DNA from: a virus
Lineage: Duplodnaviria > Caudoviricetes
Strand: one strand, 5' to 3'
DNA: 64,000 nt
IMG/VR virus record: IMGVR_UViG_3300049742_000009
Span: 1,927 to 65,926 of that record
Part shown: piece by piece, positions 6,663-40,800 of the stretch
Layout: every line of letters begins with the position of its first letter
Position numbering within the stretch: position 1 is the stretch's first letter
Position numbers and translations under genes: made by a program
The notes under the pieces: generated by a model
The model's input: only the letters and a program-made list of their open reading frames with translations
Databases searched by the model: none
What the model was told of the DNA's origin: nothing

Positions 6663-7715
6663 TCAATGCCCCTTCACGTAAACCAAGTTGGACTTCTTGA
6701 GTCGGAGTGGAACTAGAATCAGCTCAGTCACTATGGCCTTGAAGTCGTAGTAGGCGTTGAACGCCTTAAGGATATAGAAGGATGGCCAGCAGCGAAGCAC
6801 TCGCCACACACTTAGCTTACGTTTACGGATCGCATAAGCCAAGCTAGGGCCGAAGAGAAGTACCTCACTAGAAGCCATCCATGCGGCCACTACTAGCGGG
6901 GAGCCACCGTCCGCCATCCACCACACGGGCAGTGCCACCATGAGCGGTGAAAGTAGTATCTCTACAAGGGAGATGGCCACCCATAGCGCGAGCATGGGCT
7001 TACGTCGGACCATGTTCCAGCCATGCTGTCGGACGTTCTGGAAGTAGCCGGTCTTCCAGCGGTTGAGCTGGGCGCACATGAAGTGGCGTGAGGTCGGCTC
7101 GGCGGCGTAAGCCACCGCGTCGGCGACGTACGCCGCGCCGTGTCCGGCTATCTGCTGAGACCAGGTGTAGTCGATGTCCTCGACCAGTGTACGGTCGGGG
7201 AACCCCCCGAACTCGCGCAGCGCGTCGAGCCGGAAGGCAGAGCAGCAGCCAGAGCATACCAGCGGCGCCCCGTAGTGGTCCTGGACGGGCCGGAACCAGT
7301 GGAAGCCAGAAAGGTACTCCATCTGCCGCGCCCGCTCCCACAGCGTGTCCTGAAACCGCGTGAGCACGCAACCGGCCGCGATGACCGTGCGGGGATCTGA
7401 GAACGGCCCCTTGATCAACTCCACGTAGTCAGGCGCCAGAACGGTGTCTGCATCGACCGGAAGTACCAGGTCCGTTGAGCAGTGGTCTAGCGCGAAGTTC
7501 TGCGCCTTGGCTTTGCTGCCCAGGTTGACCCCGGGACTGAGTACGGTCACACGCTCAAAGCCTCGGGCCACGTTCGCCGTGCCGTCTGTGGAGCCGTCGT
7601 CAACGACGATGATGGCTTCGGGTGGGGTGCTCTGCGTGACCAGGGCAGCTAGCGTTTCGCCTATCCCCTCAACTTCGTTGTAAGCGGGGATGATTACCGT
7701 AAGACTAGCTGTCAC
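6663..7715 (-). CDS. processive membrane glycosyltransferase family 2 (IcaA/PgaC/cellulose-synthase-like)
   Basis: IPAYNE, VVDDGSTD, VDAD, QMEY, LVEDID and QLNRW (QxxRW), followed by about three TM helices. Confidence 0.9.
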   Translation of the reverse strand: MTASLTVIIPAYNEVEGIGETLAALVTQSTPPEAIIVVDDGSTDGTANVARGFERVTVLSPGVNLGSKAKAQNFALDHCSTDLVLPVDADTVLAPDYVELIKGPFSDPRTVIAAGCVLTRFQDTLWERARQMEYLSGFHWFRPVQDHYGAPLVCSGCCSAFRLDALREFGGFPDRTLVEDIDYTWSQQIAGHGAAYVADAVAYAAEPTSRHFMCAQLNRWKTGYFQNVRQHGWNMVRRKPMLALWVAISLVEILLSPLMVALPVWWMADGGSPLVVAAWMASSEVLLFGPSLAYAIRKRKLSVWRVLRCWPSFYILKAFNAYYDFKAIVTELILVPLRLKKSNLVYVKGH

Positions 7716-12864: not shown

Positions 12865-13548
12865 TTACTGGAGAGTTGCGGCGATCTGACGCGCCTGCGC
12901 CTCGTCCATACCCTCTGTGTTGATACCACGTGAGGTCAGGAACTCGCGCAGCCCGTCAGGCCACGGTGCGGGCGGAGGCGGTGCAGCAGCAGCCGGGGGC
13001 GGCCCCCACTGGTTCGCAGGCGGCGCGGCAGGCTGTGCGCCCCCCCACTGCCCGGCGAACTGGCTCTGCGCTGGCGCACTCTGGGCCGGGGGGCCTGCCT
13101 GCCACTGCTGGGCGGGCGGAGGCTGATTGCCCGAGCCGCTGTCGTACTGCGCGCGCGGGAACGCTGCCTCGTACTGCTCAGCGGTCTGTACGTCCTGCGG
13201 CGAGAAATCGGCCAGGAAGTAGGCGCCGGACTTCTGACCCTGCGCCGGGGTCTGGTTCAGCCTGCCCAGAACCTTCTTACCGATCTTCTTTTTGAGCTGC
13301 GGAACGAGGGCAGATCCCCCGATTCGCGCACCCTGTAGGAAGGTTGGCTTACCCTGGTTCTGAGGGTCCGGCAGGTCGATAATGGCAACGTCAGCCGTTA
13401 CCATGTCTGTAGGGTCCAGAGTCCCGTCAGGACGATTGAAGTTCACAGTCTCCACTGACTCCGGGAAGATGAGGAACAGCTTCCCCAGCCACTCGGGATG
13501 ATCGCGCGGCGTGAACTTAGCCCCGTGATCGGGCTGATCGTAGCTCAC
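12865..13548 (-). CDS. probable single-stranded DNA-binding protein
   Basis: Beta-rich N-terminal domain plus Q/P/A-rich tail; sits next to the exonuclease. Confidence 0.55.
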   Translation of the reverse strand: MSYDQPDHGAKFTPRDHPEWLGKLFLIFPESVETVNFNRPDGTLDPTDMVTADVAIIDLPDPQNQGKPTFLQGARIGGSALVPQLKKKIGKKVLGRLNQTPAQGQKSGAYFLADFSPQDVQTAEQYEAAFPRAQYDSGSGNQPPPAQQWQAGPPAQSAPAQSQFAGQWGGAQPAAPPANQWGPPPAAAAPPPPAPWPDGLREFLTSRGINTEGMDEAQARQIAATLQ

Positions 13549-13730
13549 TTACTCCCCTTCGGGTTGATAAGGGCTTCTACTTCGGAAGCCTTGAACCTGC
13601 GGTGTCCGCCGAGCGTCTTGAACGATGACAGCTTACCTGCGTTTGCCCAACGGGTCACGGTCTTAGGGTCAACCTTGAAACGTCGAGCTACCTCGCTTGG
13701 AGTCAACAGGTCGTCTTGTTCATCACTCAA
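13545..13730 (-). CDS. bldC: BldC-like MerR-family DNA-binding protein
   Basis: LLTPSEVARRFKVDPKTVTRWANAGKLSSFKTLGGHRRF closely matches Streptomyces BldC as recalled; TTG start 8 nt after GGAGG. Confidence 0.9.
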   Translation of the reverse strand: MSDEQDDLLTPSEVARRFKVDPKTVTRWANAGKLSSFKTLGGHRRFKASEVEALINPKGSK

Positions 13731-23295: not shown

Positions 23296-23679
23296 ATGAC
23301 TACTAGCGGACAAGACCGGTTCGCACAGTGGCTAAACATGACGATGGAGAACAGAGGCATACGCGCAACAGAGCTAGCCAAGAAGCTCAAGGTCACGGAC
23401 TCGGCGGTAAGCCGTTGGAGGTCTGGCGCAGGACTGCCCAGCATGGACGCGTGCCTGCGTATGGCTAAGGTACTCCGCGTGGAAGATCCCATGAGGCTAG
23501 CCGTAACGGCCGGGCTTGTGGACGGGGACTTGATCGGCAAGGCCCCCCTGCCTCTGCCAGAGCCGACCGCTAGGCGTAACCGAGTAAAGGATCAGTTGGC
23601 CAACATCAAGGGCCTTACTGCAAAGGAACGTCAACACCTGTTGGACGCTTACGACGAGAGGATTGAAGAGGCATCATGA
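23296..23679 (+). CDS. XRE-family HTH repressor (putative immunity repressor)
   Basis: ELAKKLKVTDSAVSRWRSGAGLPS; divergent from the early operon. Confidence 0.85.
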   Translation: MTTSGQDRFAQWLNMTMENRGIRATELAKKLKVTDSAVSRWRSGAGLPSMDACLRMAKVLRVEDPMRLAVTAGLVDGDLIGKAPLPLPEPTARRNRVKDQLANIKGLTAKERQHLLDAYDERIEEAS

Positions 23680-24032
23680 ACGAGACTGTTCGACGCGTCA
23701 TCCTGTGGATCGTCTCCCTAGGCGGTTGGAGTTGGGCCATAGGCGCGGCCACTTGGGCGGTACTCGAATTCGATCCGTCCGAAGGGCACTTCGCACCTCA
23801 GTGGCTGTCCCTGTCGGTCTTCCTGTCCATGGGGTTCGCTATCGCCGCTGGCGTCACCATAGGACGCCTCAACAGTGTTCGCACCCTGTCTGACATCTTC
23901 CGGGCTGGCACCCTCAGTGAGCGAATCGAGCGCAACACGAAGATGATCGATGAGCTGTATGACGGCCAACGGGACAAGATCGAACGCAACACTAAGTCGA
24001 TCGAAACCCTCAAGGAAGAGATCAAGAAGTGA
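23676..24032 (+). CDS. two-TM membrane protein with coiled-coil tail
   Basis: Two hydrophobic helices, then a repeated KIERNTK; ATGA overlap with the repressor. Confidence 0.75.
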   Translation: MNETVRRVILWIVSLGGWSWAIGAATWAVLEFDPSEGHFAPQWLSLSVFLSMGFAIAAGVTIGRLNSVRTLSDIFRAGTLSERIERNTKMIDELYDGQRDKIERNTKSIETLKEEIKK

Positions 24033-24208
24033 ACTCCTGTCTACTGCACCACACTTACCATGAGTTCGCCCGGGAGTGTTGGACGTACCACCTGACTTGG
24101 ATGCGTGAGCGCACGCACATCCCTGACAAGTGGCGGGCCGAGTTCTACGAACAGGCAGTAGAATCCGCAATCCTGGGCGATACATGGGAGGTTAGGCATG
24201 GACATTGA
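24029..24208 (+). CDS. hypothetical protein (59 aa, not in ORF track)
   Basis: MNSCLLHHTYHEFARECWTYH...; GTGA overlap. Confidence 0.55.
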   Translation: MNSCLLHHTYHEFARECWTYHLTWMRERTHIPDKWRAEFYEQAVESAILGDTWEVRHGH

Positions 24209-24368
24209 CCCCTACAACCCTGTAGAAGTACACGACTCGCGTCGCGCTGCTGATAGCCGCGCACTGCACATCTACGGGAAGCACGCTAAGGCATTGGGGT
24301 ACACTGTAACTGTTCGCCGAACGCCCGGACGGAAGGGCTTCGGGATCTACCTAGTTAGGAAGTCATGA
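24198..24368 (+). CDS. hypothetical protein (56 aa, not in ORF track)
   Basis: MDIDPYNPVEVHDSRRAADSRALHIYGKHAKALGY...; GGGAGG RBS, ATGA overlap. Confidence 0.6.
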   Translation: MDIDPYNPVEVHDSRRAADSRALHIYGKHAKALGYTVTVRRTPGRKGFGIYLVRKS

Positions 24369-24706
24369 CTGTCCAGGAACGGGAAAGCACATGGGGCCAG
24401 GAGTGGCGGCAGCAGCGCATCGCTCGCCCTCGATACGGCGTGCTGGACTTTGACGCATGGCGCCCGTACTTTGTGACGCCACGCATGATCGCCTACATGA
24501 ATCGCCCTAGGGCGCGGCGCACTTGGGTCGTGTTCGGTGGCTTCTGGTTCATGCTCCTCGCGTTCTTTGCGTGGGCCATAGGCTTCTGGATGGTGCTCAC
24601 GATGGCTGCTACGTGGGACTTCCTTCTGCTCTCGGTGTTCGCCATGGTGTGGACCGTTGGGACCGTGGTGCAGAGGCTTCGAGCCCGGCGGCGTGCCCGC
24701 CACTGA
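24365..24706 (+). CDS. membrane protein
   Basis: Hydrophobic C-terminal half (2 TM) with basic tail. Confidence 0.7.
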   Translation: MTVQERESTWGQEWRQQRIARPRYGVLDFDAWRPYFVTPRMIAYMNRPRARRTWVVFGGFWFMLLAFFAWAIGFWMVLTMAATWDFLLLSVFAMVWTVGTVVQRLRARRRARH

Positions 24707-24709
24707 AAC

Positions 24710-24760
24710 AAAAAAGCGCCCCCCTCTCGGTACAGGGCAGTACCGGGAGGGGGGTCTTTT
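24710..24760. terminator. bidirectional intrinsic terminator
   Basis: AAAAAA-GCGCCCCCCTCTCGGTAC-loop-GTACCGGGAGGGGGGT-CTTTT between convergent genes. Confidence 0.85.
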
Positions 24761-24761
24761 G

Positions 24762-24965
24762 TCATGCGGCGTGCTTATCGTCCGAAGCCTTGTTTGGAAC
24801 GACGTAGGTCACGCCGAGCGCGCCCAGCACCGCGAGGACGACGGAAACCGCGTCCCCCGTGTTGAAGCCACCGTCAGCGATCGCCACGCCGAGCGCAGTG
24901 CCACCAGCCGCAAGACCGGCCGCCACTGCCTTGGCGTACACAGAGACCTTACCGAGTACGTTCAT
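24762..24965 (-). CDS. holin
   Basis: 67 aa, 2 TM; YAKAVAA...LGALGVTYVVPN pattern, directly after the endolysin. Confidence 0.75.
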   Translation of the reverse strand: MNVLGKVSVYAKAVAAGLAAGGTALGVAIADGGFNTGDAVSVVLAVLGALGVTYVVPNKASDDKHAA

Positions 24966-25010
24966 TTTCGTTGCCTTTCAACGGAGTTGCCCGGCTGGTT
25001 CGTCGGGACA

Positions 25011-26039
25011 TCAGGGGGCCGGGATGAGAAGCCCGGTCTTGCTTGCGAGAAGGTTCAGCACGTCGAAGTTGGGCGTACCCGTACCCGCCCAGCCCTGGAG
25101 CTGCTGGAACTTCTTACATGCGGCCGTAGTTGCCGGACCGTAGATCCCGGGGCCGCTGCTGTAGTCGAGCCCGACGACGCGGGCTAGCGCCTTCTGGAAC
25201 GCCAGCACGTCGGATCGATGCGCGCCCGGGTGAGCCTTCGCGTACTGGAGATTGAACAGGGACACGTACGGCGGCGGCGGGACCGGTGTGGGCGTCGGAG
25301 CGGGCGCGGGCGCCGGGGCTGGCTCGTCCGGCGCCTGGTCGGTCGCCGCAGGAACGTTGATCACCTGGCCGACATCGATCTCGTCAGGGTTGGTGATCTG
25401 AGGGTTCACGGCCAGCAGCGCGTCAAGGGACACGCCCAGGCTGCGCGCAATGGCAGACAGGGTGTCGCCCGCCTTGACGGTGTACGTGTCCGTACCGGCC
25501 GCAGGCGGCGTCGGCGTGGTGTCCGGCGGGGGCGGCGCGGATGCGGTACTGTACTTCGGCCGACCGTAGCCTACGATGTAGTTCGAGTGCCGAACCATGC
25601 GCTTGCATACGTTGTCGATGTTGCCTTCGATGGTGTGCACGTCGGAACCTGATACGCTCTCAACTATACCCACGTGGTCGATAGCTGAGATGGAATTGGT
25701 ACCGTTCCAGTCGAAGAACACGATGTCTCCGCGCTGGATTCCGGCGGTGTCCGTGTGCCACTGGCCACGGCTCTGGAACCACTGTGCGTGATTCACGGTG
25801 TAGTCACGCTTCGTACCACCACACACGTTCTGCGAGTTACCGGAGTGCCAAGCCGCGTATGTGATGGTCATGTTGCACCACGGCTCACCATCCTCGCCGT
25901 ACCAGTGCGTGATGAAGTTGACGTTGTTGCCGTTCGTCTCGTCCGCGCCGATACAATAGATCATCCATGCGATCATGGAGTCCACCGATCCGTTAGCCGG
26001 AACGGACGGCTTAGGAAGCGGCTCAACTGTGCTGCTCAT
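25011..26039 (-). CDS. endolysin (CHAP + LysM + peptidoglycan-binding domain)
   Basis: PWCNM...GDIVFFDW...HVGIVE...TIEGN; YTVKAGDTLSAIA...NPQI; QKAL...GIYGPAT..A.KKFQ. Confidence 0.9.
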   Translation of the reverse strand: MSSTVEPLPKPSVPANGSVDSMIAWMIYCIGADETNGNNVNFITHWYGEDGEPWCNMTITYAAWHSGNSQNVCGGTKRDYTVNHAQWFQSRGQWHTDTAGIQRGDIVFFDWNGTNSISAIDHVGIVESVSGSDVHTIEGNIDNVCKRMVRHSNYIVGYGRPKYSTASAPPPPDTTPTPPAAGTDTYTVKAGDTLSAIARSLGVSLDALLAVNPQITNPDEIDVGQVINVPAATDQAPDEPAPAPAPAPTPTPVPPPPYVSLFNLQYAKAHPGAHRSDVLAFQKALARVVGLDYSSGPGIYGPATTAACKKFQQLQGWAGTGTPNFDVLNLLASKTGLLIPAP

Positions 26040-26283
26040 AAGGCGAGCTACCTTTCGTCCAAGTGCGGGGAGGCTCTATAGATGCGCCTCGGATTATGGC
26101 CCTATACGCCTGATCACGAGTAACCGGAAGGTCGCTGTTGACGCCACCCCTGTCTATGTAATAGACAGGTTCGCCGATATAGGCTGTGTGAATCCATCCA
26201 CACAACACCTCACAGTCGCAGGGAACTATCTTAGTCTCCCTGACAACTCTTACAGTAAAGGGCGATTCCTGATACTCAGTCAC
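26023..26283 (-). CDS. hypothetical protein
   Basis: 86 aa between the NlpC/P60 gene and the endolysin; overlaps both. Confidence 0.55.
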   Translation of the reverse strand: MTEYQESPFTVRVVRETKIVPCDCEVLCGWIHTAYIGEPVYYIDRGGVNSDLPVTRDQAYRAIIRGASIEPPRTWTKGSSPYEQHS

Positions 26284-26969
26284 AACACTCTCCGAGCGAA
26301 GTTGGGTCGGTAGTAACTCATGGACACCTGCACAACTCCCGAGCTGGGGTTCTGTGCTGCGATGTACTGCCCGTTGCCTACGTAGATAGCAACGTGGTAA
26401 GCCGCGCCGGGCAGACCCCAGAAGAGCAGGTCGCCAACTTCCAAGTGGGACAGGCTCACAGACCTACCCTGTAGCGACTGCATCTCAGATGTACGATGCA
26501 GGGTTATGCCGATCTTGGCATATGCCGCCTTGGTCAGGCCCGAACAGTCGTATGCGGAAGGTCCGTTACCGCCCCATGAGTAGCGCTTCCCAAGCTGGGC
26601 GCGCAGGAAGGCCACCAGAACCGATGTCGGCTTAGTGGGCTTGGGTGCGGGGTGGACCTTCTTAACCTCAGCCTTGGGCTTAGGCTTTGACTTGTGCTCC
26701 TCGACCTTCTTAGGTGGCTTCGGCGGCGAATCGTGCTGCGTGTTACCAGGCACGGCCGCCATCGGCCAGGTAGGGAACTCGTGTCCCTCGAAGATGGGAG
26801 CGGGAGCTATGAACTCATCCTCGTCGTCGTCGTGTTCGCGAGGCTCACCGACAGAGCCCCCGGTCGTGAAGGGTATCCACGCACCGGCTGTCACAACAGA
26901 GACAGTCAGCGCTAGGGCCTTTCTCCACGACCGGAGGCCAGCAACGGCCGCGCCGTGCTTACCTGTCAT
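26280..26969 (-). CDS. secreted or membrane-anchored NlpC/P60 peptidoglycan endopeptidase
   Basis: N-terminal basic plus hydrophobic leader, K/P linker, QLGKRYSWGGNGPSAYDCSGL...GDLLFW...HVAIY. Confidence 0.9.
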   Translation of the reverse strand: MTGKHGAAVAGLRSWRKALALTVSVVTAGAWIPFTTGGSVGEPREHDDDEDEFIAPAPIFEGHEFPTWPMAAVPGNTQHDSPPKPPKKVEEHKSKPKPKAEVKKVHPAPKPTKPTSVLVAFLRAQLGKRYSWGGNGPSAYDCSGLTKAAYAKIGITLHRTSEMQSLQGRSVSLSHLEVGDLLFWGLPGAAYHVAIYVGNGQYIAAQNPSSGVVQVSMSYYRPNFARRVL

Positions 26970-27502
26970 GCCGCAGGATCTCCAAGCTGTGCGAGTGCGG
27001 ACTTGAGCTTGTTCACAGCCTCGGCGTGCGTCGCAGTCAAGGCGTCCACCTTACTCTGCAACTCGCTTCGCTTGACCTCAAGTTCGCCGACGATCTCGTT
27101 CCGCTTGGTGTTCCCGTCTGCGATCACCTGCGCCGCCTTGGAGTTGGCGTCCGCGATGATCTGGTCACCAGCCGCGTGAGCATTGGCGATCACCTTGTCA
27201 GCAGCGGCCTTTGCCTCGGCGGCCTGCTGATCTGCGGCCTGCTGAGCAACGGCCAGGAGACGCGCAACGTCGCCAATCGGGTTGCTAGGCGCAGGCGGTG
27301 CAGCGGGAACCGGAGGGAGCTGCGCTGTCACGGCACCGCTCCGGTAGCGCGACAGATCGCCGTTAGCGGCTGCGAGCTGCGTAAGAGCGCTGCTGTAGTC
27401 AGCGACGATCCGGTCTAGGAAGTCGTCAACCTCGTGCGGATCGTAGCCCCGTAGCGACTTGACCGTAAATGTCTTCTTAGTGATGTCGTCAGGGGTCAGC
27501 AT
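26966..27502 (-). CDS. divIVA: DivIVA/Wag31-like protein
   Basis: MLTPDDITKKTF...LRGYDPHEVDDFLD signature, Pro linker, then LL..AQQ.AD...A coiled coil. Confidence 0.9.
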   Translation of the reverse strand: MLTPDDITKKTFTVKSLRGYDPHEVDDFLDRIVADYSSALTQLAAANGDLSRYRSGAVTAQLPPVPAAPPAPSNPIGDVARLLAVAQQAADQQAAEAKAAADKVIANAHAAGDQIIADANSKAAQVIADGNTKRNEIVGELEVKRSELQSKVDALTATHAEAVNKLKSALAQLGDPAA

Positions 27503-27514
27503 GAGTCACCTCGT

Positions 27515-28501
27515 TTAGTACGGGCTTCCGGGGACTATCCCGAAGTACCCGTGCGCCTCATCATTCTGGATATAGTTCAGTGCCGCAGCGACGTTCGCCA
27601 ACGGGTCGTAAATGTTCAACGATGTTCCGGCAACGTGATAGTAGTCGAACGTTGCCTTGATCGTCTGCATTAGGCCCCGACTGGGATCGCCATTCGCTGC
27701 GTTAGAGTCATCCAAGTTTATTGCGTTCGGATCGCCGGAAGACTCTGCCTGTATTAGGGCGAGTATCTGGTCTATCTGCGGCCCTCCAGAGAGTGGCACC
27801 AACTGCTCAGCCTGCTGGATGATGGGTATCCAGAACGATACGTCAGAATGCTGACAATATCCAGATACCGTCCCTGGGCAATCCGGCGCGATGGCCGGTG
27901 TGATCAGGCTGCCATCGCTGGGCGGCGTGACGACCGGCGGGGGATTGTCCACGGGCGGCGTCACGACCGGCGGAGCGGGCGGCCACGGCCCCTCACACGC
28001 CTTCCCGTCGCCGTCCATGTCCAGGGCGTGCCGGTAGCCCGGCTGGCCCCTGTGCAGCCCGGCAGGCGCGTCCGTGCAGTCTCGATACCAGACCCTGACG
28101 TGGTGTCCGTGGCCGCCATCGTGACGGCCGACCGGCGGGACCGGTACGGTGCCAGCGGGGGTGCAGTGGCCATCCGGCAGGTGGACGTGTCCGCCTCGGA
28201 AGATGAGGCTGTAGTCGTCCGGCCGGTCGCCCGCGATGATGCCAGGGTTGATGGCCTCAAGGTCTGCCAGCGCCACGCCGTAACGCGCCGCGATGGTCGA
28301 GAGGTTATCGCCACGGTTGACGATGTAGTCCTCACACGCGGTAGGAGTAGCAGGAGTCGTTACATCGCCACCAGCGGGCGCAGTAGTAGGGGCAGCGTTC
28401 GCCGGGCCAGCGAACACAATCGGAATAGAACCGGTGGTGCCAACTGCCAGTGCGGCAGCGGCAATCCTCTTCTTGTTCGGACTCGGCTTTGCGTGCTTCA
28501 T
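27515..28501 (-). CDS. secreted lytic transglycosylase (signal peptide, LysM, excalibur, SLT)
   Basis: Leader ending PANA/AP; YIVNRGDNLSTIA; YRDCTDA...GQPGY...LDMDGDGKACE; AESSGDPNAIN...GLMQTI..TF. Confidence 0.88.
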   Translation of the reverse strand: MKHAKPSPNKKRIAAAALAVGTTGSIPIVFAGPANAAPTTAPAGGDVTTPATPTACEDYIVNRGDNLSTIAARYGVALADLEAINPGIIAGDRPDDYSLIFRGGHVHLPDGHCTPAGTVPVPPVGRHDGGHGHHVRVWYRDCTDAPAGLHRGQPGYRHALDMDGDGKACEGPWPPAPPVVTPPVDNPPPVVTPPSDGSLITPAIAPDCPGTVSGYCQHSDVSFWIPIIQQAEQLVPLSGGPQIDQILALIQAESSGDPNAINLDDSNAANGDPSRGLMQTIKATFDYYHVAGTSLNIYDPLANVAAALNYIQNDEAHGYFGIVPGSPY

Positions 28502-28517
28502 CCTTGATCATCTCCAC

Positions 28518-28754
28518 TCAGTGGGTATCTGCCCATACAGCTACTACTGCCACTACGAGCGACAATATCGCTATAATCGTTGCTACTTGCTGCATCGGGA
28601 AGCGTCGCTCCTCCGAAGCACGCAAGCGCTGTTCATGATCCTTGTCGTGCTCTTCCAGGTCCTCAACTCGCGAGTGCAGTTCTATGTTTGACTCGCTAAG
28701 GCGCCTGATCTCGGACCAAATAGCCTTCTCTCGACCGCCGTTGTCTATGGGCAT
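28518..28754 (-). CDS. coiled-coil membrane protein (lysis-associated)
   Basis: Heptad N-terminus and C-terminal TM VATIIAILSLVVAVVAVW. Confidence 0.7.
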   Translation of the reverse strand: MPIDNGGREKAIWSEIRRLSESNIELHSRVEDLEEHDKDHEQRLRASEERRFPMQQVATIIAILSLVVAVVAVWADTH

Positions 28755-28763
28755 GGCGGGCTC

Positions 28764-29687
28764 CTATACGAAGTATTCAATCCCATTGAAGCTGATCCAA
28801 GTTGGGTCAGCGACGGCGCCCGTCGGCGTGAAGGTGTGCGTATGGCTTCCCATGGTGTGAGTGTGGTTACCCACCACCGTAGTGTTGTGCGCGTGACACA
28901 GGTCGGAACCGGCCTGCGACAGATAACCACAGATCTGATAGTCACTGAGGTCAGTCGCGTTAATGCTAGTAGCTCCGGTGCTACCGCCTGAGGCCGTGCC
29001 CGTGTTACCGCCGTTGACGTTACCGAACGTTGTAGGACCGACCAGGACTACGGAGCCATCCGTATTGAACTGGAGTCCTACGGCGGTTGATCCACCAGTG
29101 ATGTCACGAGCCGTAAGAAGATTGCGAGTTGACGTAGGGCGGTACGGTGCCGGTACCTGGGCCGCTGCGAAGATCGCAGTATTGGTACCCGTGTGCGCCA
29201 CTGAGCCCTTCCACTGGATCTTCAAATCGCCATGATCTACGACGAGTCGATAGGCAGGGTTGCCACCACCGTTGCCGTTGTTGGTGAACCCGCTACTCGG
29301 CGTCGGAGTCTGCCAGCCACCGTTAGCGCCTAGGCTGCCGTCGTGGATCTGGCCGAGTACCACAATGTCCGTGCCCTGTTTGACTATCAGCACCGTGTCG
29401 CCGACCACGGGCGAGTAGCTGTCCAGGTAACGCACAGCGGATATGGTCGTAGTGTCATCGCCCGAGATCGTCAGATCCACGCTGGGCGGATCGGCTGTCG
29501 GGTTGTATGCGGTGATGGTTCCCTTGCGAATCGTCGCAGGATCGAACGGCAGCGGGGGCGCGGCGAGCTGATCGACCAGGGCTGCTACCTCGGTAGACTG
29601 CTGGCCTGTTGCTACCTGGGCCACCTGAGCGGAAGCCGTAGGCGCACCCTCGGCGGGTGGCGGCGGAGACGATGCGGGTGTGGTCAT
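28764..29687 (-). CDS. minor tail protein
   Basis: GT.T...V...G......RYL.SY.P.VGD.V OB-like N-terminus; G/T-rich C-terminus; position after the tail hub. Confidence 0.75.
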   Translation of the reverse strand: MTTPASSPPPPAEGAPTASAQVAQVATGQQSTEVAALVDQLAAPPLPFDPATIRKGTITAYNPTADPPSVDLTISGDDTTTISAVRYLDSYSPVVGDTVLIVKQGTDIVVLGQIHDGSLGANGGWQTPTPSSGFTNNGNGGGNPAYRLVVDHGDLKIQWKGSVAHTGTNTAIFAAAQVPAPYRPTSTRNLLTARDITGGSTAVGLQFNTDGSVVLVGPTTFGNVNGGNTGTASGGSTGATSINATDLSDYQICGYLSQAGSDLCHAHNTTVVGNHTHTMGSHTHTFTPTGAVADPTWISFNGIEYFV

Positions 29688-30808
29688 TAGCCAACGCTCC
29701 TATTCTCGCGAAGGGTTAGCTGCTGAGTTCCAGTGGCCAGCAACGGGACATTGAACGAGTCCAGGACGTAGAGCCCAGACACGTGCGACCTAGACCGCTC
29801 CACCTGGATAACGTCGTTGGCTTCGTACGCCGAGTTGACACCGGCGGTGATGGTGAGCTGCGACGAGAAGCCAAGCTGCGCGTTCAGCAGTGAAGTTGCC
29901 ATCGCCGTGGCGTCATCTTCGCTCGTAACAACCTGATCCGTTACGAACATCGGCACCTGGCCATATGGTCCGTATCGGTACGTCGGAGACGACGGCTCCA
30001 TGTCCCACGCCTCGCCGCGCACAGGCGGCAGCTCATCCCCTGGAGACTCGCCCGTCACGATGACGCCGTTATACCCGGGCTCGTCCGTGAAGACGCGGGA
30101 CAGGCTCATCATGGTGCAGCCGTGACCCTCTATGTAGGTGAACTCGGGGCTTGGCAGCGCGGCCAGGTCGGGGGGCGGTGCGATCACCAGCACGCCATGT
30201 GCGTCGAAATACGCCTGGCAGCCGAGCGATGAAGCAAGCGTGGTGATCGCATCCCATGGGTTACTTGAGATGTCGTACACCTGAGGCGAGCTTGTAGTGA
30301 TGCTAGTTGAGATAGTGTCGTAGTCAACGTCTGGCAGAGTCAGTGCAACTATGCCCTTGATGGCGTCAATTACGTTGGTGTCAGCGTCAACCGTATAGAC
30401 GCTGGTGAAACTGTTCCGTCCTATGGTGCGGGACAGGTCAGACGCTTCTATGCTGATAGCGGGGGAGCCGCCTACAGAGTCGTCAACGGTTGTCTTTGAC
30501 AGGCGGAAGACGCCGAGCGGGTAAACCTCATAGGTGCCATCGTCATAGACGACACCCCGGTAAGGGCGCAGCTCCGTCCCGAACGGGGTAAGGATGCTAG
30601 CCGCATTCTTCGGCGTCAACTCTCCTGTTGGGTCAACGCACTTGACGGTAAGCGCACGACGAGTAGCAGACTTACCGTCAACGCTGACCTCACCATCTAT
30701 CGCAGTGAGCCGGAACTGCTCCTGAGTGGGCCCCGTGATATCGATGTAAGAGATCGAACGGTGCGACCGCTTGATCTCGTTTATGTACCTATCAGTACCA
30801 CGGGGCAT
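29687..30808 (-). CDS. minor tail protein (DUF5047-like hub)
   Basis: PFGTEL..YRGV...PLGVFR; position downstream of the TMP. Confidence 0.75.
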   Translation of the reverse strand: MPRGTDRYINEIKRSHRSISYIDITGPTQEQFRLTAIDGEVSVDGKSATRRALTVKCVDPTGELTPKNAASILTPFGTELRPYRGVVYDDGTYEVYPLGVFRLSKTTVDDSVGGSPAISIEASDLSRTIGRNSFTSVYTVDADTNVIDAIKGIVALTLPDVDYDTISTSITTSSPQVYDISSNPWDAITTLASSLGCQAYFDAHGVLVIAPPPDLAALPSPEFTYIEGHGCTMMSLSRVFTDEPGYNGVIVTGESPGDELPPVRGEAWDMEPSSPTYRYGPYGQVPMFVTDQVVTSEDDATAMATSLLNAQLGFSSQLTITAGVNSAYEANDVIQVERSRSHVSGLYVLDSFNVPLLATGTQQLTLRENRSVG

Positions 30809-33800: not shown

Positions 33801-34804
33801 CTACAGTTGACCTGAGTTGATTCCGTCGAGTCCGTCAGCGTCTCGAAGTCTGCCTGTTGCACAGAGAGCAGGTTGGACGCATCTCGGAACGTCAAGGATG
33901 CAGACGAGTTGTAAGAGTCTGGCACGACCAGGATGGTGCCCACCCCGGGGGTGCCAGACTCGCCACCGTCGTCATTGCCGGGCACGGCAGGCGCCGGACC
34001 CTGCACGGTAAACGACTTCCCAACCCACAGGCTCTTAGCGTCGAACGTAGACCAAACCCGAACGTATACTGCGTAGTTATCCGGGTTGATCGACGTAGGC
34101 AGGACCACAGAGCTAAGGTCGCCGTTCACCGTAGCAGCGTAGACCGGTGGCGCGGTGTCAGGATCAAAGCTTGCGCTAGCAGCCTGCACCGCCGTGAAGA
34201 TCCGATACTCGGACTTCTTTTGCGGGTCGCCGTCCGTCTGGCTGTAGACCCAAGAGATGGTCGGAGATGAAGTGTAGACCGTGCCAGAAGGCGCGGTCAC
34301 CTCAACTGTCGGGCGGAGCCGATAGTTGATAACACAGTAGAGCCGGTAGCACCGGATGCGGTCCGCGTGTCCGCCGTAGCAGAACGCGCGGCACATGATC
34401 TTATTCAGCCGGTGCCGATCCCACGGCCGACCCGTAGCGTCACACTGATACGTAGCGATCTCGATATCCTCGATATCCTGCGTAGGCGTGACGGTACGGG
34501 TCGTCCAACGGGACGTGTCGTCCGAACACGTAAGCTGAATCGTAATAGAATCAGGGTCACTTGTAGTGCGGTTGCACCGACACCGGATGGTGATGGACGT
34601 GATGACCGCACCATCCGGTATCGATGAGATGTCCACAGGGAACGAGACGGTACCCGCGCCCTTGCTAGCCGGACATGAGGCGTACTTAGTGTCATCCACA
34701 CTTGAGCGGCCCCAGCAATCGTGGAGCTGCTGAACGCCACTTCCGGACAACGACCAACCATCGTTGCGATACTCGCCGTTGCAGTAGTGGTTAACAGACC
34801 CCAT
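30818..34804 (-). CDS. large minor tail protein with carbohydrate-binding-like inserts
   Basis: 1328 aa right after the TMP; two P.G...GDL.IA modules; S/T-rich. Confidence 0.8.
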   Translation of the reverse strand: MGSVNHYCNGEYRNDGWSLSGSGVQQLHDCWGRSSVDDTKYASCPASKGAGTVSFPVDISSIPDGAVITSITIRCRCNRTTSDPDSITIQLTCSDDTSRWTTRTVTPTQDIEDIEIATYQCDATGRPWDRHRLNKIMCRAFCYGGHADRIRCYRLYCVINYRLRPTVEVTAPSGTVYTSSPTISWVYSQTDGDPQKKSEYRIFTAVQAASASFDPDTAPPVYAATVNGDLSSVVLPTSINPDNYAVYVRVWSTFDAKSLWVGKSFTVQGPAPAVPGNDDGGESGTPGVGTILVVPDSYNSSASLTFRDASNLLSVQQADFETLTDSTESTQVNCSAARDASTAFGSGQASLKLTASSAATMSDTTSYVEVAEQTPITVRAQFKAATTGRDVNLTANFYDSTFTLLDSITASGSDVTDSWTEISATGTTPIGTQFATVTKEVVSPASLEVHNIDRVGLMYGDSSAWSDGGHMSRNLLSAAQSNMDTADSSNPWITANSATTYSRVAVTGTGANGSSMSQMKYIGISPTIAYRATSSVFTSPTSGTNFTLNKPAGTTDGDLLIAYVTCTGANVMHPPADWTLVNSAIVSTSTGESLFVLKHNGAAADPSTWTDGFLGTATTRRSAVVVAYSGAADIDSQFVAENVKADSSGNLVHTTATVNNTVGNAWRLCAFAYRDNVSGGTSVANIAPPSTVPPIAFVGTATRWTSTSSSTSSYVINRPSGVVSGDLMIATVAISDNSPTVTAPSGWSVVTQFTTDGTIDGRMAILKRTAGSSEPTSWTGSLSSSSLPIMTECVAYRNCDTAANQFIDDDTSTKSGGSSITTASVVNDNSGAWRVCSFMASRQTLDSAPNFSSSEVIERADDYASYVGSGYHSSGARALSAAVYDSNGPVSTGTHSRTANLSASWYAAASWIGLLKPLPTAPAPGANETERLDNTNGSSNPWQTLAVYDSNGVISTGNTSVTGVLTPGSGSAADSVVSWIGIIKPADPVVEGTVESKLTSAISLSTIDPAVLELAGGKVSLVSSFLGSTSGTPYLTMEFYNGNELISSQVAEGTVFNSSTWVKSAATFTMPTDAVITRLRPILGAKDRAINDTVSFKNVGIMLGDTDTYRPGTGRDAHPIWSKAQIQYQEDDGTGYGDWIDLPGQGFNPPSYDPLSGACVYVDQTIIPLVKRRYRIQTVSYGLAGDVFVSGYGPASEEVGLSAANWWIKDIGHPENNMILRVRPEMDVTTTNTATVFQPLGEDFPYVVTEGFKGDTFTLTFVVDKNEYADLRALLNNGRTLYLQTDVDNAWWVRAVSDLDADLLPTGRRKVNPLRFFKVTFAQVKPEV

Positions 34805-37800
34805 TACTTGCCCCTCTTCTGGTTGAGCATGCGTCGGATCTTCGGAACAAGCTCACCCTCGACGCGCTGGTAAACGCCGTGATCCATGTTGCCGTGTACC
34901 GTGATCGGGATGGACAGGTTGATATCGCCGTTACCACCCTGAGTGGGAGGCAACGTGCCGTTAGGAAGAACCTCTTCGCCGCCACGGAACTTAACCCACT
35001 CGGGACCGCGCTCACCAACAGTGTGCCAACCCGACTGTGCACCGCGCGTTCCCGCGTAGTAAGGCAGGTAGCCACCGCCGGAGTTAACCGACCGGACACC
35101 AGGCACGTTGTTGATGCTGCCGTAGACAGACACGATGTAGTTAATCGCGGCTGCCACGTTAGCGATCGGGTCGAGAATATTCGTACTCGTGCCCGCAACG
35201 TGGTACGCAGAGAACGTAGGCGGAATAACCTGCGCGAGACCCTGAGAGGGCACGCCGTTCTGAGCGTTGATGTCATAGTTGTTGATCGCGTTCGGGTCCC
35301 AACCAGACTCATTCGTGATGATGAGGTTAAGGCCCGATTCCCACGCTGCCTGACTGTCGGGCGGCGGAACACCAGCCGCAGCCATAGCAGCATCGATGAT
35401 TGCCAGGTGGTTCGAGTCCGTAACAGCGGCCCCAACTGCGGCCTCAATTGACGGACGGAAGCCGTACCAGTCCTGGAACATCGGGTCATTGTAGCCACGC
35501 GCACTCGGACCGGATCGAACTGCGGGCGGAGTCGCTTCGTAGTTCGTACCGTTGAGGGTACCGGCCGTGTGGCCAACACCGACGTTGGTAATACCGATCA
35601 TGAAGGGAGCTTCCAACTCCCGCTCAAAACCTGCGGGCGCAGTGTCACCACTGAACGCGAAGGTAGTGAACCAGGGGGCAGGAGTCTCGCCCAGGATCGC
35701 GCGCGCGATACCGGACATGTACTGCGAACAGTCGAACGTGACGCCGAAGTTACCACCGAGCGCATACGGCTTACCAACCTGGGCGTCTGCCCAAGCCTGA
35801 GCCGCAGCGTCGTTGGCGCCACCCATTGTCGGAGCAACGTCGTTCGCCGTAATGTACGACGTGACCGTGCCGACCATCTGGTCAACCATGTTGTTCAACA
35901 GGGTCTTGTAACCAGAGTCGTTCGGCATAAGGGCCGCGATGGCATCCTTACCAGCCTGTCCGGCAGCTTCGATGAACGGGTTCGAAATGTCCTTGATCGA
36001 ACCGAGAGCAGCACCGGCCGCCTGCGAGATCGGATCGCCCCCCGCGCCTGCCGTCGCAGCGGCCTGCGTGGCGGACGTACCGCCCTGCGGGGCGCCGACG
36101 AGCCCGGTGGTGTCGGTGACGCCACCGCCGAGCGCAAAGTGCCCGTTGTAGCCCATCTGACGGACGCCAGCGCCACCCATGGCGGCGGACCGCATGGCAG
36201 CGACCGCGCCATGGCCACCGGCCGCCGACACCTCGGCAGCGGTCCACACGTGCTCGCCATTGGAGAGCCGCGCGGTGATGCTGTCGGAGGTTCCAGTACC
36301 GGCGCCCTGGACGGGGCCACCAGAGGCGTACGCGGGCATAGTGAAGGTGTCCAGCGTCGGGGCGTCGAACGTCCCGGCGATGGCGTTCCACATGGCCACG
36401 ATGCCCTGATTGAACACCACGTCAACAACGGCCGCCACAGGCTCGCGTACCGCAGTCTTGAGGTTTGTCCATCCGGTGCTGATGGCGGTTACCGACGCGT
36501 TGAACGCGTTCGGCAGGTCGGTGTCCATCATGGTCGTAACGGGAGCGACGAGCCCCGTTTGCATGTCCGTGACACCCTGCGTGTACTGGGCCTTAGTGTC
36601 AGACCAATACTTAGTTGTGTCGGCAGTCGCAGTTGTAAGAGTGTTCTTCCAACTCGTCCCTACTTCCGTACCCATGTCGGTGTAGGTCTTCTGTAGGTCC
36701 GTGCTGAACTGCGCTGCCTGCACCTTCTGGTCCGTCCAGGTCTTCTGAGTGAAGTCCTTGTTTTCGGTCCAGTCGGTGGCCCACTTGGTCTGAATGGCGT
36801 TACCGGTGTCGGCGAACGTCTTCTGTAGGTCGGTGTTGTAGTTAACAGCAGCAGCCCTCTGGGAACTCCACGCGTTCGAAGAGGTAGAAGTCGCACTAGA
36901 CCACGTGTTCTTGGTACTGCTGATGATGGCATTGCCCGAATCGCTGATGGCCTTAGCAAGTCCACTTGCGAACGGAACGACGGACGACTGCATACCGGAC
37001 CAACTGGTGTTGGCGGTGTCGCTAACGTCCTTCCATGCAGTATCAGACGTAGTCTGAATGGTCTTCATGTACTGCTTCCATAGGGCAGCGTTCTGCGCAA
37101 GCTTCTGCTGATCTATGGGGTTAGCTGCGGTCGTTGGGTCCTTACCGGCCCCCATCATGGCGGCCGTATCCTTGGCGTTCTTAACCTCTTCGCCACCGCC
37201 GAACAGAACCATTTCAGGCCCGTTCTCACCGACGAGGTGAACACCGGGTGTGGCGCTGGGAGTTCCGGACGCGTAAGGCGAACCGGGCACGTGCCCATAG
37301 CGAGCCTGAATGTAGTTAATGGCTGCGGCGATGTTGGCAATTGGGTCAAGGATGTTGTTCGACGTACCCGGCTGATGGTAAGCGGTGAACGTCGGACCAA
37401 TGACCTGCATAAGACCCATGGACGGGTGACCGGCGGCAGCGTTGGAGTCCCAACCGTTAACTGCGTTCGGGTTACCGCCCGACTCGTGAGCCATCAGGGA
37501 CAGGATGCCCGGAAGCCACGATGCCGGGGCACCGGCCAAGGCAAGGGCCTGGAGAACCACTGGCGCCCATGCCTGGACTGACTGGGCGCCAGCGACAGAC
37601 ATGGCCATGTAGTTCTGGTGGGCCTTGTTGTCCTCATCAATGAGCCGTTGCTTAAGGCCGTCAAGGATCTTGTGGACACCGGCATCCATAACGTTACCGA
37701 CGTTGCCGAACTTGCCCTTAAGTCCCTTGTCTGCGAAGTCCTCAAGGATCTTGAAGCCCGCACTAATGGCCTTCTCGCCGATGAAGCCCAGGACCGTACC

Positions 37801-40800
37801 GGCAGCGCCACCGCCCAGGAAGCCGAGCGCCGCATGGGCAATGCCTCCGACGATCTTGCCGAGGGTGCTGTCCTTTCCGCCGGGTATGGCGATGCCAAGA
37901 GCGTTGGCGATAAGCTCACCAATGCTCTTACTGGACCCCTTGCCCATCATCGCGTTCTGCGAATCAACGGACGTACCGGCAGCCGGACTGCTGGCAGTAC
38001 CAACACTGTTAGGATCAACGGGCTTTACGGGCTTACCGCCGTTGCCGAAGAACTGGACATTGCCCAACACTCCGCCGTTGGCAAACTGGGGCATAGGTAC
38101 CGCAGGCGTAGAGCCCGGGAACATGCCAGACTTCCCGCCTCGACCACCACTGAACTCGTTGTTAGCCCAGTGAATCCAATCGGAGCCACCAAGGGCGCGC
38201 ACGGCCTCGGGGACCAATACGCCCTCGCCAGGCGACAGCATGGCGGGAACGGTGTCCCTGCCGGGCTTGTATCCGCCCAGCGCTCCGCCGCCGGTCATGT
38301 CACCGAAGATCGGTCGCCCGCCTGTGAGTTGGTTATTGCGAGCAGCGAACGTCTTGGTTACGCCGCCGTCCTCGTAGTTCACCGGAACGACAATGCCACC
38401 GCCTGCGAACTTAGGAACACTCACGTGACCAACGGTGCCGAGGTGAAGGCTCTTAAGGCCAACGGCGTCAACAACTGCGTTCCACGCCTTGATGATTCCG
38501 TTGACGACGGTAATACAGGCGTTGACACCATCGCCGATGATTCCAGCGATGCCGTTCCAGATGGACTTAGCGGTGTTCTTGATGCCGTTCCAGACCGTGG
38601 ACCAAGCCTTACTCAGCGCGTCGCCAGCCGTATTCCAGGCAGAGCGAAGGGCGTTGAGAACAGCAGACCAGGTTGACTTGAGTGCATCCCAGACCGCATA
38701 GGCTCCGTTCTTCATGGCCAGCCAGACGGCCGACCATGCTGCCGACAGGGCAGAGCTGACCGTGTTCCAAATCGAGTGCATGGCGTTGCCCCACGCCTGC
38801 CAGGCAGCCTTAAGGGCGTCCCATACGGCGTAGGCACCGTTCTTCATGGCGAGCCAGACAGCGGACCAGGCGGCCGAGAGGGCAGAGCTGACCGTGTTCC
38901 AGATCGAGTGAAGCGCGTTGAGGAACGCCTGCCATGCGGCCTGCATGGCGTTCCAAACTGCCTCAGCGGCAGTCTTCATGGCGTTCCACACGGCATTCCA
39001 CGCAGCAGACAGAGCGCCAGAAACAGCGTTCCACGCAGTAACAAACGCCTGGCATACGGCGTTCCACGCAGCCTGCATTGCGGACCAAATGGCCTGCGCC
39101 GCAGTGGACATGGCGTTCCACACAGCATTCCACGCCGTGGTGAGCGCAGCGGAGACCGTATTCCACACCAGGGCAAGGCCGTTGACGAACGCGTTCCAGG
39201 CAACGGTAAGAGCGTTCCATATCGCCTGCGCAGCAACGGACAGGCCGTTCCACACGGCATTCCACGCAGTAACTAGCGCACCAGAAACGGCAGTCCACGC
39301 GATACTAAGACCCGTGACAAACGCCTGCCAGGCAACCTGGAGAGCTGCCCAAATCACCCTGACCGCAGTGGACATACCGTTCCAGACGGCATTCCACGCC
39401 ACAACGAGCGCACCGGAGACAGCGTTCCAGGCGATCGTCAGGCCATTAACGGTAGCCGTCCAGGCTGCCTGTAGACCGGTCCAAATCGCCCTCACTGCAA
39501 TGGACATGCCATTCCAGACGGCATTCCATGCAACGACAAGGGCAGCAGAAATGGCAGTCCATGCAATCCTCATGCCATCAAGGAAGGCGCGCCACGCTAT
39601 ACCAAGTGCGGTCCAGATTGGGCCACTTCCCTGCATGAACTGCATCCACGCCTTCCAGCCAATCTCAAGGAACTGGAGGACGGTGACGACACCTCGGAGG
39701 ATAACCACCAGACCGAGCCAAATGACCCCGTTGATCTGAATGATCGGGACCAACAGCTGCATAACCTGGGCTATCAACTTGAGAGTTTGGATCAGGAGTT
39801 GACCGTGATCAGCCGATACGACCTGGACGATGACGCTAGCGAACGACAAGAGAACCTGGCCCGCTGCGCCCATGACCTGGTTCATGATCTGGCCGAGGCC
39901 AGGAATCCTGGCCAGCATGTTAGCTGCCTGACCGAGCGCAGAGCCCAGGAGAGTTGCGCCCTTGCCGAGCCCGTCAAACAGCGGCCCCATGGCGCGCATG
40001 GCAGAAGTGAGTCCGGGCAGCGCTGCCCCAGCCAAGTGCTCTACGACATCAAGCATGGGACGCACAAGGGATGCCGCCGCAGAGAACGCACCCTTGATCG
40101 CGGGTCCTATCAGGTGAAGCCAACCGTTAACCTGAGACAGACCGTCCTGGAGAGCCTTGATCGCTGGCATGGCCAAAGGCAGGATGGTCTTCTGGAGCTG
40201 GCCGAACGCGTCAGCGAAGGAAGACTTAAGCTTTTCGTTCGTTGCGATAAGCGCGCCAGCGGCCCCAAGGAACGCAACGGGAATGAGCGCAACTGATGCG
40301 GCCATTAGTGGTGCCGCAGCCGTGAACGCTGCCATGGCAACCGAGGCCGCAACTATGGCAGTTACGAAACCGCCCATCGAACTACCGGCGCTCGCCGCAG
40401 AACTTCCCACGTTACCTACGGCAGAAGCTCCACCACCGGCAGCGCTCGCCATTCCACCTATAGCCGACCCTGCGCCACCGGCCGCGCTACCCAACAACGC
40501 GAGATCATGCATGGAGTTGTTGCTGTCGTTGCTTAGCTGCCCAAGGTGTATATGAGCGTTGTTGACATCAACATCTGCCGTAGCGGTTACATGCGTAGCA
40601 CCGAATGCAGCCAGGCGCGCCTGTACCTCTGCCAGATTCGCAGCGTTGACATTCACGTCGGCTGTAGCCGTGGCGTGAGTCGCGGCGAACTGCGCAAGGC
40701 GAGCCTGCAAAGCCTCAAGCGCTCCGCTCTGCGCGTTGACATCAGCGGTGGCCGTGCTGTGGATCGTACCGAACTGAACGACCCTGGAGCGGATCGCATC

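Follow-up and report, generated by a model that had tools for sequence, protein, structure and literature searches.

What is a homologue of the bacterial polarity protein DivIVA doing among the wall hydrolases of a phage lysis cassette? The question is raised by a stretch of DNA (hereafter the window) that makes up 64,000 of the 65,926 bases of IMG/VR virus record IMGVR_UViG_3300049742_000009 (positions 1,927 to 65,926), a record graded complete by CheckV, with a G+C content of ~60% along the whole length of the window. It comes from an uncultivated siphovirus-type actinophage and holds no integrase of either the tyrosine or the serine type, so a lytic lifestyle is probable. Our data suggest that the lysis cassette of this lytic actinophage has been enlarged by a two-gene unit, which would encode a Sec-exported peptidoglycan hydrolase and, after it, a cut-down DivIVA. 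As an explanation we suggest, with confidence clearly short of even, that a clade of actinomycete phages captured and trimmed a host DivIVA to target exported hydrolases at tips, branch points and cross-walls.

A first-pass annotation of the window had described an overlapping run of genes between the tail genes and an endolysin-holin pair. All seven open reading frames (ORFs) are indeed there; they lie on the minus strand, with the last tail gene on one side and a hairpin terminator on the other. In the order of transcription, with product lengths in amino acids (aa) and the basis of each assignment in brackets, the features are:

28518 to 28754, minus strand: 78-aa protein; charged coiled-coil region at the N-terminus, single membrane helix at the C-terminus (hydropathy)
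27515 to 28501, minus strand: 328-aa predicted exported glycosidase; an SLT lytic transglycosylase domain at the C-terminus, behind a signal peptide, a partial LysM and Excalibur (Pfam)
26966 to 27502, minus strand: 178-aa minimal DivIVA homologue (Pfam)
26280 to 26969, minus strand: 229-aa NlpC/P60 endopeptidase with an N-terminal signal-anchor, an acidic stretch and a Pro/Lys linker (Pfam)
26023 to 26283, minus strand: 86-aa ORF that starts with GTG and belongs to no known family (ORF only)
25011 to 26039, minus strand: 342-aa cytoplasmic endolysin with CHAP, LysM and PG_binding_1 domains (Pfam, PHROG)
24762 to 24965, minus strand: 67-aa holin-like protein with two hydrophobic segments, the last gene of the operon (hydropathy)
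24718 to 24755, no strand assigned: hairpin with a 16-bp stem including 11 G-C pairs, a candidate two-way terminator (sequence)

Three junctions of the run overlap (DivIVA/P60 and P60/86-aa ORF by 4 nucleotides (nt) each, 86-aa ORF/CHAP by 17 nt), and the remaining ones are gaps of 9 to 45 nt. Upstream in transcription lie the gene for the tape measure protein (34804-41220) and then three tail genes. The hairpin starts 7 nt beyond the holin stop codon, separates the convergent late operon from plus-strand genes, and is the sole terminator-like site within 23500-29800. Judged from this layout, the cassette is one late co-oriented block closed by a terminator. At its end stands the combination that defines a holin-endolysin cassette: a signal-less CHAP-LysM-PG_binding_1 hydrolase, a small membrane protein and a terminator at the end of the operon. 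The CHAP endolysin and the holin-like protein are the pair predicted to carry out timed lysis. Export signals, here and below, were read by eye and from hydropathy. The earlier calls of a coiled-coil transmembrane protein, a secreted SLT protein and a DivIVA homologue agree with hydropathy, with a signal peptide bearing an A-N-A site and with a Pfam score of 55.8 bits, respectively. The call of a secreted NlpC/P60 enzyme was right about the domain (NLPC_P60, 3.5e-25), but the protein looks tethered, with an N-terminal helix that has no A-x-A site.

The evidence that the DivIVA-like gene belongs with an exported hydrolase comes from its relatives. The close DivIVA family comprises ~18 clusters, all metagenomic, and a profile search of 1.8 billion representatives widened this family to short DivIVA-like proteins 150-240 aa in length. 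In IMG/VR, neither the single protein nor the close-family alignment retrieved any relatives, and the wider alignment (A3) returned five contigs. Altogether, 14 distinct gene contexts were recovered from metagenomes and IMG/VR; the relatives are uncultivated, lie mostly on short contigs, and in several cases come from one broad phage group, so the contexts do not amount to 14 independent events. Without exception, the DivIVA-like gene lies directly 3' of a peptidoglycan hydrolase gene. A signal peptide was read in the inspected hydrolase products; the N-terminus is unclear in L179 and unreadable in a 60.5-kb contig from JGI. The enzyme itself varies. It is a LysM-Excalibur-SLT hydrolase in the window, L001, L094, L008, L009, the JGI contig, L182 and L183, a tethered P60 in L004, an Excalibur-P60-SLT fusion in L097, Rpf-LysM-M23 in L178, LysM-PG_binding-M23 in L179, Rpf-P60-LysM in L180 and Rpf-LysM-P60-M23 in L181. 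A cytoplasmic endolysin (CHAP; GH25 in L178) and a holin come next in 12 of the 14 contexts, directly or one to three genes on, and in most contexts with recovered coordinates the DivIVA stop codon overlaps the next start by 4-8 nt. Recurrence in related phages shows that the arrangement is not due to chance, and the swaps of enzyme type and gene order argue for repeated retention. Co-conservation had been proposed as a check on the original reading, and in this respect that reading stood: diverged phages have kept a polarity-protein homologue together with exported wall hydrolases.

One context had seemed to hold an exported SLT protein without DivIVA, until its 233-aa neighbour proved to be a divergent DivIVA missed by precomputed annotation. 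Longer DivIVA-like forms of this kind (233-237 aa; L182:1680-2381 and L183:4989-5702) follow an SLT-Excalibur gene in a different neighbourhood, with Gp77-like and putative fibre genes downstream and neither endolysin nor holin nearby. Because the SLT-DivIVA pair occurs here away from the lysis pair, DivIVA appears to be tied to the exported enzyme and not to the holin. The NlpC/P60 enzyme behaves differently. Its family (~50 clusters) is also found beside CHAP endolysins in the DivIVA-less phages L095 and L096, and most DivIVA-bearing cassettes either have no separate P60 gene or have P60 fused into the upstream hydrolase. Since neither P60 nor the 78-aa protein is confined to phages with DivIVA, the core unit is the exported hydrolase plus DivIVA, and the original proposal of a DivIVA flanked by two complementary hydrolases does not hold as the conserved unit.

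The same comparison bears on whether the DivIVA gene is an accessory gene unrelated to lysis, placed in a permissive slot and serving to exclude DivIVA-dependent phages or to anchor DNA or assembly at the poles. The cassette does take insertions. The 86-aa ORF, which had been counted as a member of the system, is not conserved: neither Pfam nor PHROG gives a match for it, and the relatives hold no counterpart. In L094, what lies between P60 and CHAP is a 163-aa lipoprotein with two Lipoprotein_Ltp repeats (4.9e-40; 6714-7205) and a 126-aa Cys-rich Zn-finger-like protein (7215-7595). Together these mark a variable slot that accepts accessory genes. The Lipoprotein_Ltp family is known for superinfection exclusion. 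Precedents for the DivIVA gene itself would be Bifidobacterium phage PMBT6, which has a 72-aa DivIVA N-domain gene among its early genes, and mycobacteriophage Fruitloop, whose gp52 is reported to exclude phage Rosebush by inactivating Wag31 (PMC7474061, citing Ko and Hatfull 2018). Against this, the position of the DivIVA gene relative to the exported hydrolase is fixed in 14 of 14 contexts despite swaps of enzyme and order, the gene is translationally coupled to the next one, and without an integrase there is no lysogen to protect, while late expression is ill-suited to exclusion. We therefore regard an unrelated accessory role as quite improbable. A role in lysogenic conversion was ruled out by the absence of both integrase types.

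What kind of DivIVA has been retained? The 26966-27502 product matches Pfam DivIVA (PF05103) over residues 2-47 (6.1e-15, 55.8 bits against a cut-off of 28), and its first 42 residues align to the N-domain of Bacillus subtilis DivIVA (2WUJ; E 2.8e-6) and to GpsB. L17-R18 aligns with the membrane-inserting F17-R18 of the B. subtilis protein, and nearly all of 27 aligned family members have a hydrophobic residue plus Arg or Lys at this membrane-loop pair. Y20, D26 and D30 are invariant in the family alignment and correspond to the partner-binding groove of GpsB. An AlphaFold 2 (AF2) model shows helices at residues 4-8 and 22-56 joined by a loop, a disordered Pro-rich linker at 57-74, and a long helix at 75-173 with a predicted local distance difference test score of 88-96. 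From these features, the N-domain is predicted to be of the lipid-binding type, and the protein is predicted to oligomerise and sit at negatively curved membrane. Like the CHAP endolysin, it has no export signal.

Both domains align to Streptomyces DivIVA. Compared with the 388-aa Streptomyces protein P0275, residues 2-50 are 50% identical and residues 75-170 are 38% identical to coiled-coil residues 184-280, whereas the Pro/Gln/Gly linker of ~120 residues is reduced to ~20 aa and the C-terminal tail of ~110 residues is gone. By this alignment, the phage protein keeps the host N-domain and second coiled coil, without the long linker or C-terminal tail. Such a natural minimal DivIVA, with an N-domain and one coiled coil, should be useful for asking which parts suffice for targeting and partner binding. 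The gene is under purifying selection, with a ratio of non-synonymous to synonymous substitution rates (dN/dS) of 0.09-0.37 in seven relatives with DNA, dS being mostly saturated. By context it is not a cellular DivIVA/Wag31 orthologue, as it lies in a phage lysis cassette and not in a sepF-yggT-divIVA cluster; P0019, a true cluster copy, is 33% identical to it. The nearest cellular relatives are ~30-38% identical overall. Scans of metagenomes and species genomes returned no prophage copy or clear donor, and only distant DivIVAs (<=35%) from many phyla. As no cellular relative comes nearer than ~35-38%, the capture of DivIVA appears to be old.

We suggest that the phage DivIVA is a membrane-curvature adaptor that focuses the export or action of the phage wall hydrolases, a reading by analogy that we favour tentatively and hold at somewhat less than an even chance. 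The phage protein, alone or mixed with host DivIVA, would assemble on the cytoplasmic face of the membrane where curvature is strong, at hyphal tips, branch points and cross-wall junctions, and would as an adaptor deliver to the translocon the exported glycosidase and the tethered P60 in their pre-protein form. The wall would thus be pre-weakened at defined spots before the holin fires; once it fires, the CHAP endolysin and released P60 would complete wall breakdown. The expected outcome is a fast, localised rupture of a long, thick-walled hypha. Of the uses proposed in the first-pass annotation, the best fit is focused virion release, given that these genes form a lysis cassette, with CHAP endolysin and holin in 12 of 14 contexts.

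The closest parallel is the DivIVA-SecA2 secretion route of Listeria monocytogenes, one of whose substrates, MurA, is a LysM-bearing autolysin. There, DivIVA recruits pre-p60, an NlpC/P60 protein, and pre-MurA for SecA2 secretion, and in cells without DivIVA export of p60 and of MurA by the SecA2-dependent route is blocked and the pre-proteins are diffuse and not septal (PMC3478244, PMC13471167). In two further reports, B. subtilis DivIVA cross-links to SecA (PMC3924036) and Streptococcus suis DivIVA binds the transglycosylase MltG (PMC10269899). The Listeria and phage systems share a DivIVA, an exported NlpC/P60 protein and an exported LysM-bearing glycan hydrolase, which in the phage are encoded adjacently. 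They differ in that the Listeria genes are cellular, unclustered and SecA2-dependent and serve daughter-cell separation, whereas the phage genes are adjacent late genes in a lysis cassette with no SecA, and their part in export is proposed by analogy. In return, the phage pairing offers an independent hint that the DivIVA-autolysin secretion link of Listeria may be widespread in Gram-positive bacteria.

Several points weigh against the adaptor proposal. It is drawn from gene content and analogy; the Listeria mechanism requires SecA2, and no SecA is encoded by the phage; and no partner in the cassette is specific to DivIVA-bearing phages, as those without DivIVA can likewise have the conserved tail and helix of P60 and the 78-aa protein. 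Adjacency could reflect co-regulation of two separately acting parts. The identity of the host, finally, is inferred from sequence likeness, and the wording "hyphal tip" depends on it.

The resemblance to host DivIVA also admits an explanation that involves no enzyme targeting. A truncated DivIVA made late in infection could mix with or displace host DivIVA and halt wall synthesis and repair at the tip, poisoning the polarisome and speeding lysis through growth inhibition. The 38% coiled-coil and 50% N-domain identity to host DivIVA make mixed oligomers plausible, but with nearest cellular relatives only ~30-38% identical overall, co-assembly is unproven. The late operon is a fitting location for such a gene, and the phage protein has lost both the linker and the C-terminal tail. 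In Streptomyces DivIVA, the AfsK regulatory sites lie in this tail. Some phages are known to make proteins that act on DivIVA/Wag31 so that the poles bulge, Fruitloop gp52 being one example (PMC7474061). What poisoning leaves unexplained is the tie to an exported hydrolase, including in L182 and L183 with no endolysin or holin nearby. We consider it unlikely, if worth serious attention.

The adaptor proposal requires that the paired enzyme leave the cell. The 27515-28501 product carries SLT (1.5e-9), Excalibur (2e-8) and LysM (6e-6) matches in Pfam, and at its N-terminus a basic n-region and a hydrophobic core precede an A-N-A cleavage site; a signal peptide with an A-x-A site is kept in ~40 relatives. 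We predict that it is a Sec-exported muralytic glycosidase. Its SLT domain is 52-60% identical to both SLT domains of the 2138-aa tape measure protein (34804-41220, minus strand; Pfam 3.2e-25, two stretches), and this identity makes the catalytic domains of the two proteins paralogues. SLT catalytic domains shift among tape measure proteins, endolysin C-termini and the exported protein, which places the exported enzymes among the ordinary members of the phage wall-degrading set. We considered whether the exported enzymes are virion parts; this was ruled out by their export signals and by the SLT domains already present in the tape measure protein.

Relatives swap the SLT protein for Rpf-type enzymes that retain its LysM/Excalibur part. 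The Rpf domain (PF06737) is not in the window enzyme, which has SLT (PF01464), and is present in the equivalent proteins of L004, L178, L180 and L181. This brings up the idea of a remodelling system that opens or creates growth poles, or wakes dormant spores in the manner of Rpf to provide new hosts. Foci of DivIVA are able to initiate new zones of growth. True Rpf domains in the paired enzyme of relatives would suit the idea, as would the roles of Rpf and Swl hydrolases in Streptomyces germination and of DivIVA in marking germ tubes (PMC5693915). The window enzyme, being SLT and paralogous to tape-measure domains, does not, and the genes lie in the lysis cassette of a lytic phage; a cytoplasmic DivIVA is limited to the cell that is infected and has no access to spores. 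Overall, we find pole creation or spore waking very improbable. In a separate observation, four inspected Streptomyces C40 peptidases (P0086, P0087, P0099 and P0114) share a long basic motif before the helix, S-H-R-K-P-R-R, and the phage exported SLT/Rpf enzymes have a look-alike, K/R-H-A/R-K-P.

The NlpC/P60 enzyme encoded at 26280-26969 has C142, H192 and N207 invariant in 34 relatives, and its catalytic domain is 54-61% identical to Streptomyces C40 peptidases. The N-terminal helix, W-R-K ... T-A-G-A-W-I-P-F, is nearly invariant in the same 34 relatives; it spans 17 residues, is ~53% Ala/Gly/Ser/Thr and, as judged by eye, is weakly hydrophobic. With no A-x-A site present, a membrane-tethered enzyme would fit better than a secreted one. 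The N-terminus is conserved far beyond an ordinary signal peptide, in phages with and without DivIVA (alignment A2), which suggests a specific role, such as tethering of the signal-anchor-release (SAR) type or contact with another membrane protein. Over residues 1-60, the pattern reads G-K-H ... C/R-x-W-R-K, then the T-A-G-A-W-I-P-F helix, an Asp/Glu run and P-x-P-x-F-E-x-H. We also considered its R-x-x-R-K tail as a DivIVA-specific docking motif, like the GpsB-binding motifs of PBPs, and rejected this as tail and helix are equally kept in the absence of DivIVA. A copy of a tape-measure domain was likewise rejected, as the tape measure protein gave no BLAST match and has no P60 domain (Pfam, E 0.001).

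Hydrolases exported before the holin is triggered carry a risk of early lysis, and DivIVA might instead guard the hypha from it. It could do so by stabilising the membrane or polarisome at sites of damage, much as Streptomyces DivIVA foci mark regrowth sites after wall damage (PMC5680176), or by keeping tethered enzymes inactive until the holin fires; the strict pairing with exported enzymes in 14 of 14 contexts would fit a cognate control factor. Yet L095 and L096 have the tethered P60 without DivIVA, so tethered enzymes manage without it, and the cleaved, secreted SLT protein is beyond direct inhibition by a cytoplasmic protein. A safety or timing device of this kind is improbable in our estimation.

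Of the other members of the cassette, the 25011-26039 product matches CHAP, LysM and PG_binding_1 in Pfam and endolysin families in PHROG (down to 1.3e-30), and hydropathy shows no hydrophobic N-terminus in it. The 67-aa holin-like protein (24762-24965) is 76-90% conserved in L001, L008, L094 and L097, where its gene also closes the cassette, and look-alikes hold the same position in L179 and L180. Neither it nor the 78-aa protein (28518-28754) matches a Pfam family. The 78-aa protein, whose hydrophobic 19-mers begin at residues 51-60 (maximum Kyte-Doolittle value 2.78), matches phrog_5225, a family of no assigned function (2.9e-10). It has homologues in L001 and L094 (77% identical) and in the DivIVA-less phage L095 (41%), in which the gene adjoins that for a 72-aa holin-like protein. 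The 41% homologue rules it out as a DivIVA-specific anchor, and we regard it as a candidate holin-like accessory protein. It resembles the LysF1b class of actinophage lysis proteins in having its bulk inside and one helix, but this helix is C-terminal, whereas that of LysF1b is N-terminal (PMC13056207, PMC9671378).

How new is this arrangement? Holin-endolysin cassettes of actinophages, including multi-holin ones, share its place after minor tail genes (PMC9671378, PMC13056207) and several components: a cytoplasmic multi-domain endolysin with a small two-helix holin after it, as well as a one-helix protein that has a large portion in the cytoplasm. In Rhodococcus phage Shagrat, the closest isolate, one 587-aa endolysin, a holin and a membrane protein come straight after the tail genes, and both DivIVA and an exported hydrolase are absent. 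Export of lysis enzymes has precedents in Lys44 of Oenococcus phage fOg44, which has a signal peptide, and in the SAR lysins of phages P1 and 21. These hydrolases, too, are exported by host Sec before lysis, and SAR domains resemble the P60 helix in being rich in Ala/Gly/Ser/Thr without a cleavage site. Unlike such systems, the phage cassette pairs its exported enzymes with a classical cytoplasmic endolysin, and we know of no cytoplasmic polarity-protein partner in them. The combination of a lytic transglycosylase with an NlpC/P60 endopeptidase is shared with mycobacterial RpfB-RipA and Streptomyces Rpf/Swl (PMC2912383, PMC5693915), and RpfB and RipA hydrolyse peptidoglycan synergistically (PMC2912383). 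Phage relatives go as far as fusing Rpf, P60 and M23 domains in one exported protein. The cellular enzymes differ in serving growth, division and germination, and the window glycosidase is SLT, not Rpf.

Two phage proteins invite comparison with the DivIVA homologue. In mycobacteriophage Ms6, the gene immediately upstream of lysA encodes Gp1, which is chaperone-like and assists export of the endolysin. Like the phage DivIVA, it is a small cytoplasmic cassette protein whose gene overlaps the next lysin gene and that is proposed to help a lysin reach the wall, but there is no sequence relation and it is not a membrane-curvature protein. Fruitloop gp52 is likewise a phage protein that acts on the DivIVA-based polar growth machinery of actinobacteria. 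It differs in being an unrelated small protein that binds and inactivates Wag31 and excludes another phage (PMC7474061), while here the phage encodes a DivIVA homologue. Protein and DNA queries of 50,697 phage records found no pairing of DivIVA with an exported hydrolase, and the literature searched held no description of a phage DivIVA in a lysis cassette. Lysis cassettes with exported lysins are already known; what is new is DivIVA as a component, and how strictly it is paired. Among annotated actinophage genes, the only one with a DivIVA domain that we found is the 72-aa N-domain of phage PMBT6 (L184, 11197-11415). It lies among early and replication genes, another use of the DivIVA N-domain.

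Phage lysis is understood as a problem of timing, with a holin clock, an endolysin, and spanins where needed, and to our knowledge no phage component sets the place of rupture. If the adaptor proposal is correct, this would be the first phage to choose where, and not just when, its host bursts. The firm link of a DivIVA homologue to exported hydrolases in lysis cassettes suggests that the site of rupture is important to phages whose hosts are filamentous and grow at the tip, and offers a testable gene for the location of lysis. The exported Rpf, SLT, P60 and M23 enzymes are also candidate lytic tools against actinomycetes.

Who is the host? The tail module is nearest to those of Rhodococcus equi phages such as Shagrat and REQ1, with a DUF5047 tail protein 54% identical. 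The P60-domain, endolysin-gene and DivIVA matches, unlike the tail module, point to Streptomyces: among the organism-named nearest cellular relatives listed for the NlpC/P60 domain, nearly all are Streptomyces C40 peptidases (54-61% identity), and the endolysin gene is 69-77% identical at the DNA level to endolysin genes of Streptomyces phages. There is no mycolate esterase (LysB) in the lysis cassette. The host is probably Streptomyces or a close relative.

A few further genes were noted. The IMG/VR relatives L179 (5488-5649) and L180 (5531-5806) encode very acidic small proteins of 53 and 91 aa that overlap the upstream DivIVA gene, belong to no known family and share an (A/M)-F-G-x-P ... 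G-V-Y motif. The phage in the window also encodes a 350-aa family-2 glycosyltransferase (GT2; 6663-7715, minus strand; Pfam 1.3e-29). Streptomyces CslA, also a GT2, associates with DivIVA at tips, and by analogy a link between the phage GT2 and the phage DivIVA is conceivable. Finally, a 61-aa MerR/HTH_17 protein is encoded at 13545-13730 on the minus strand.

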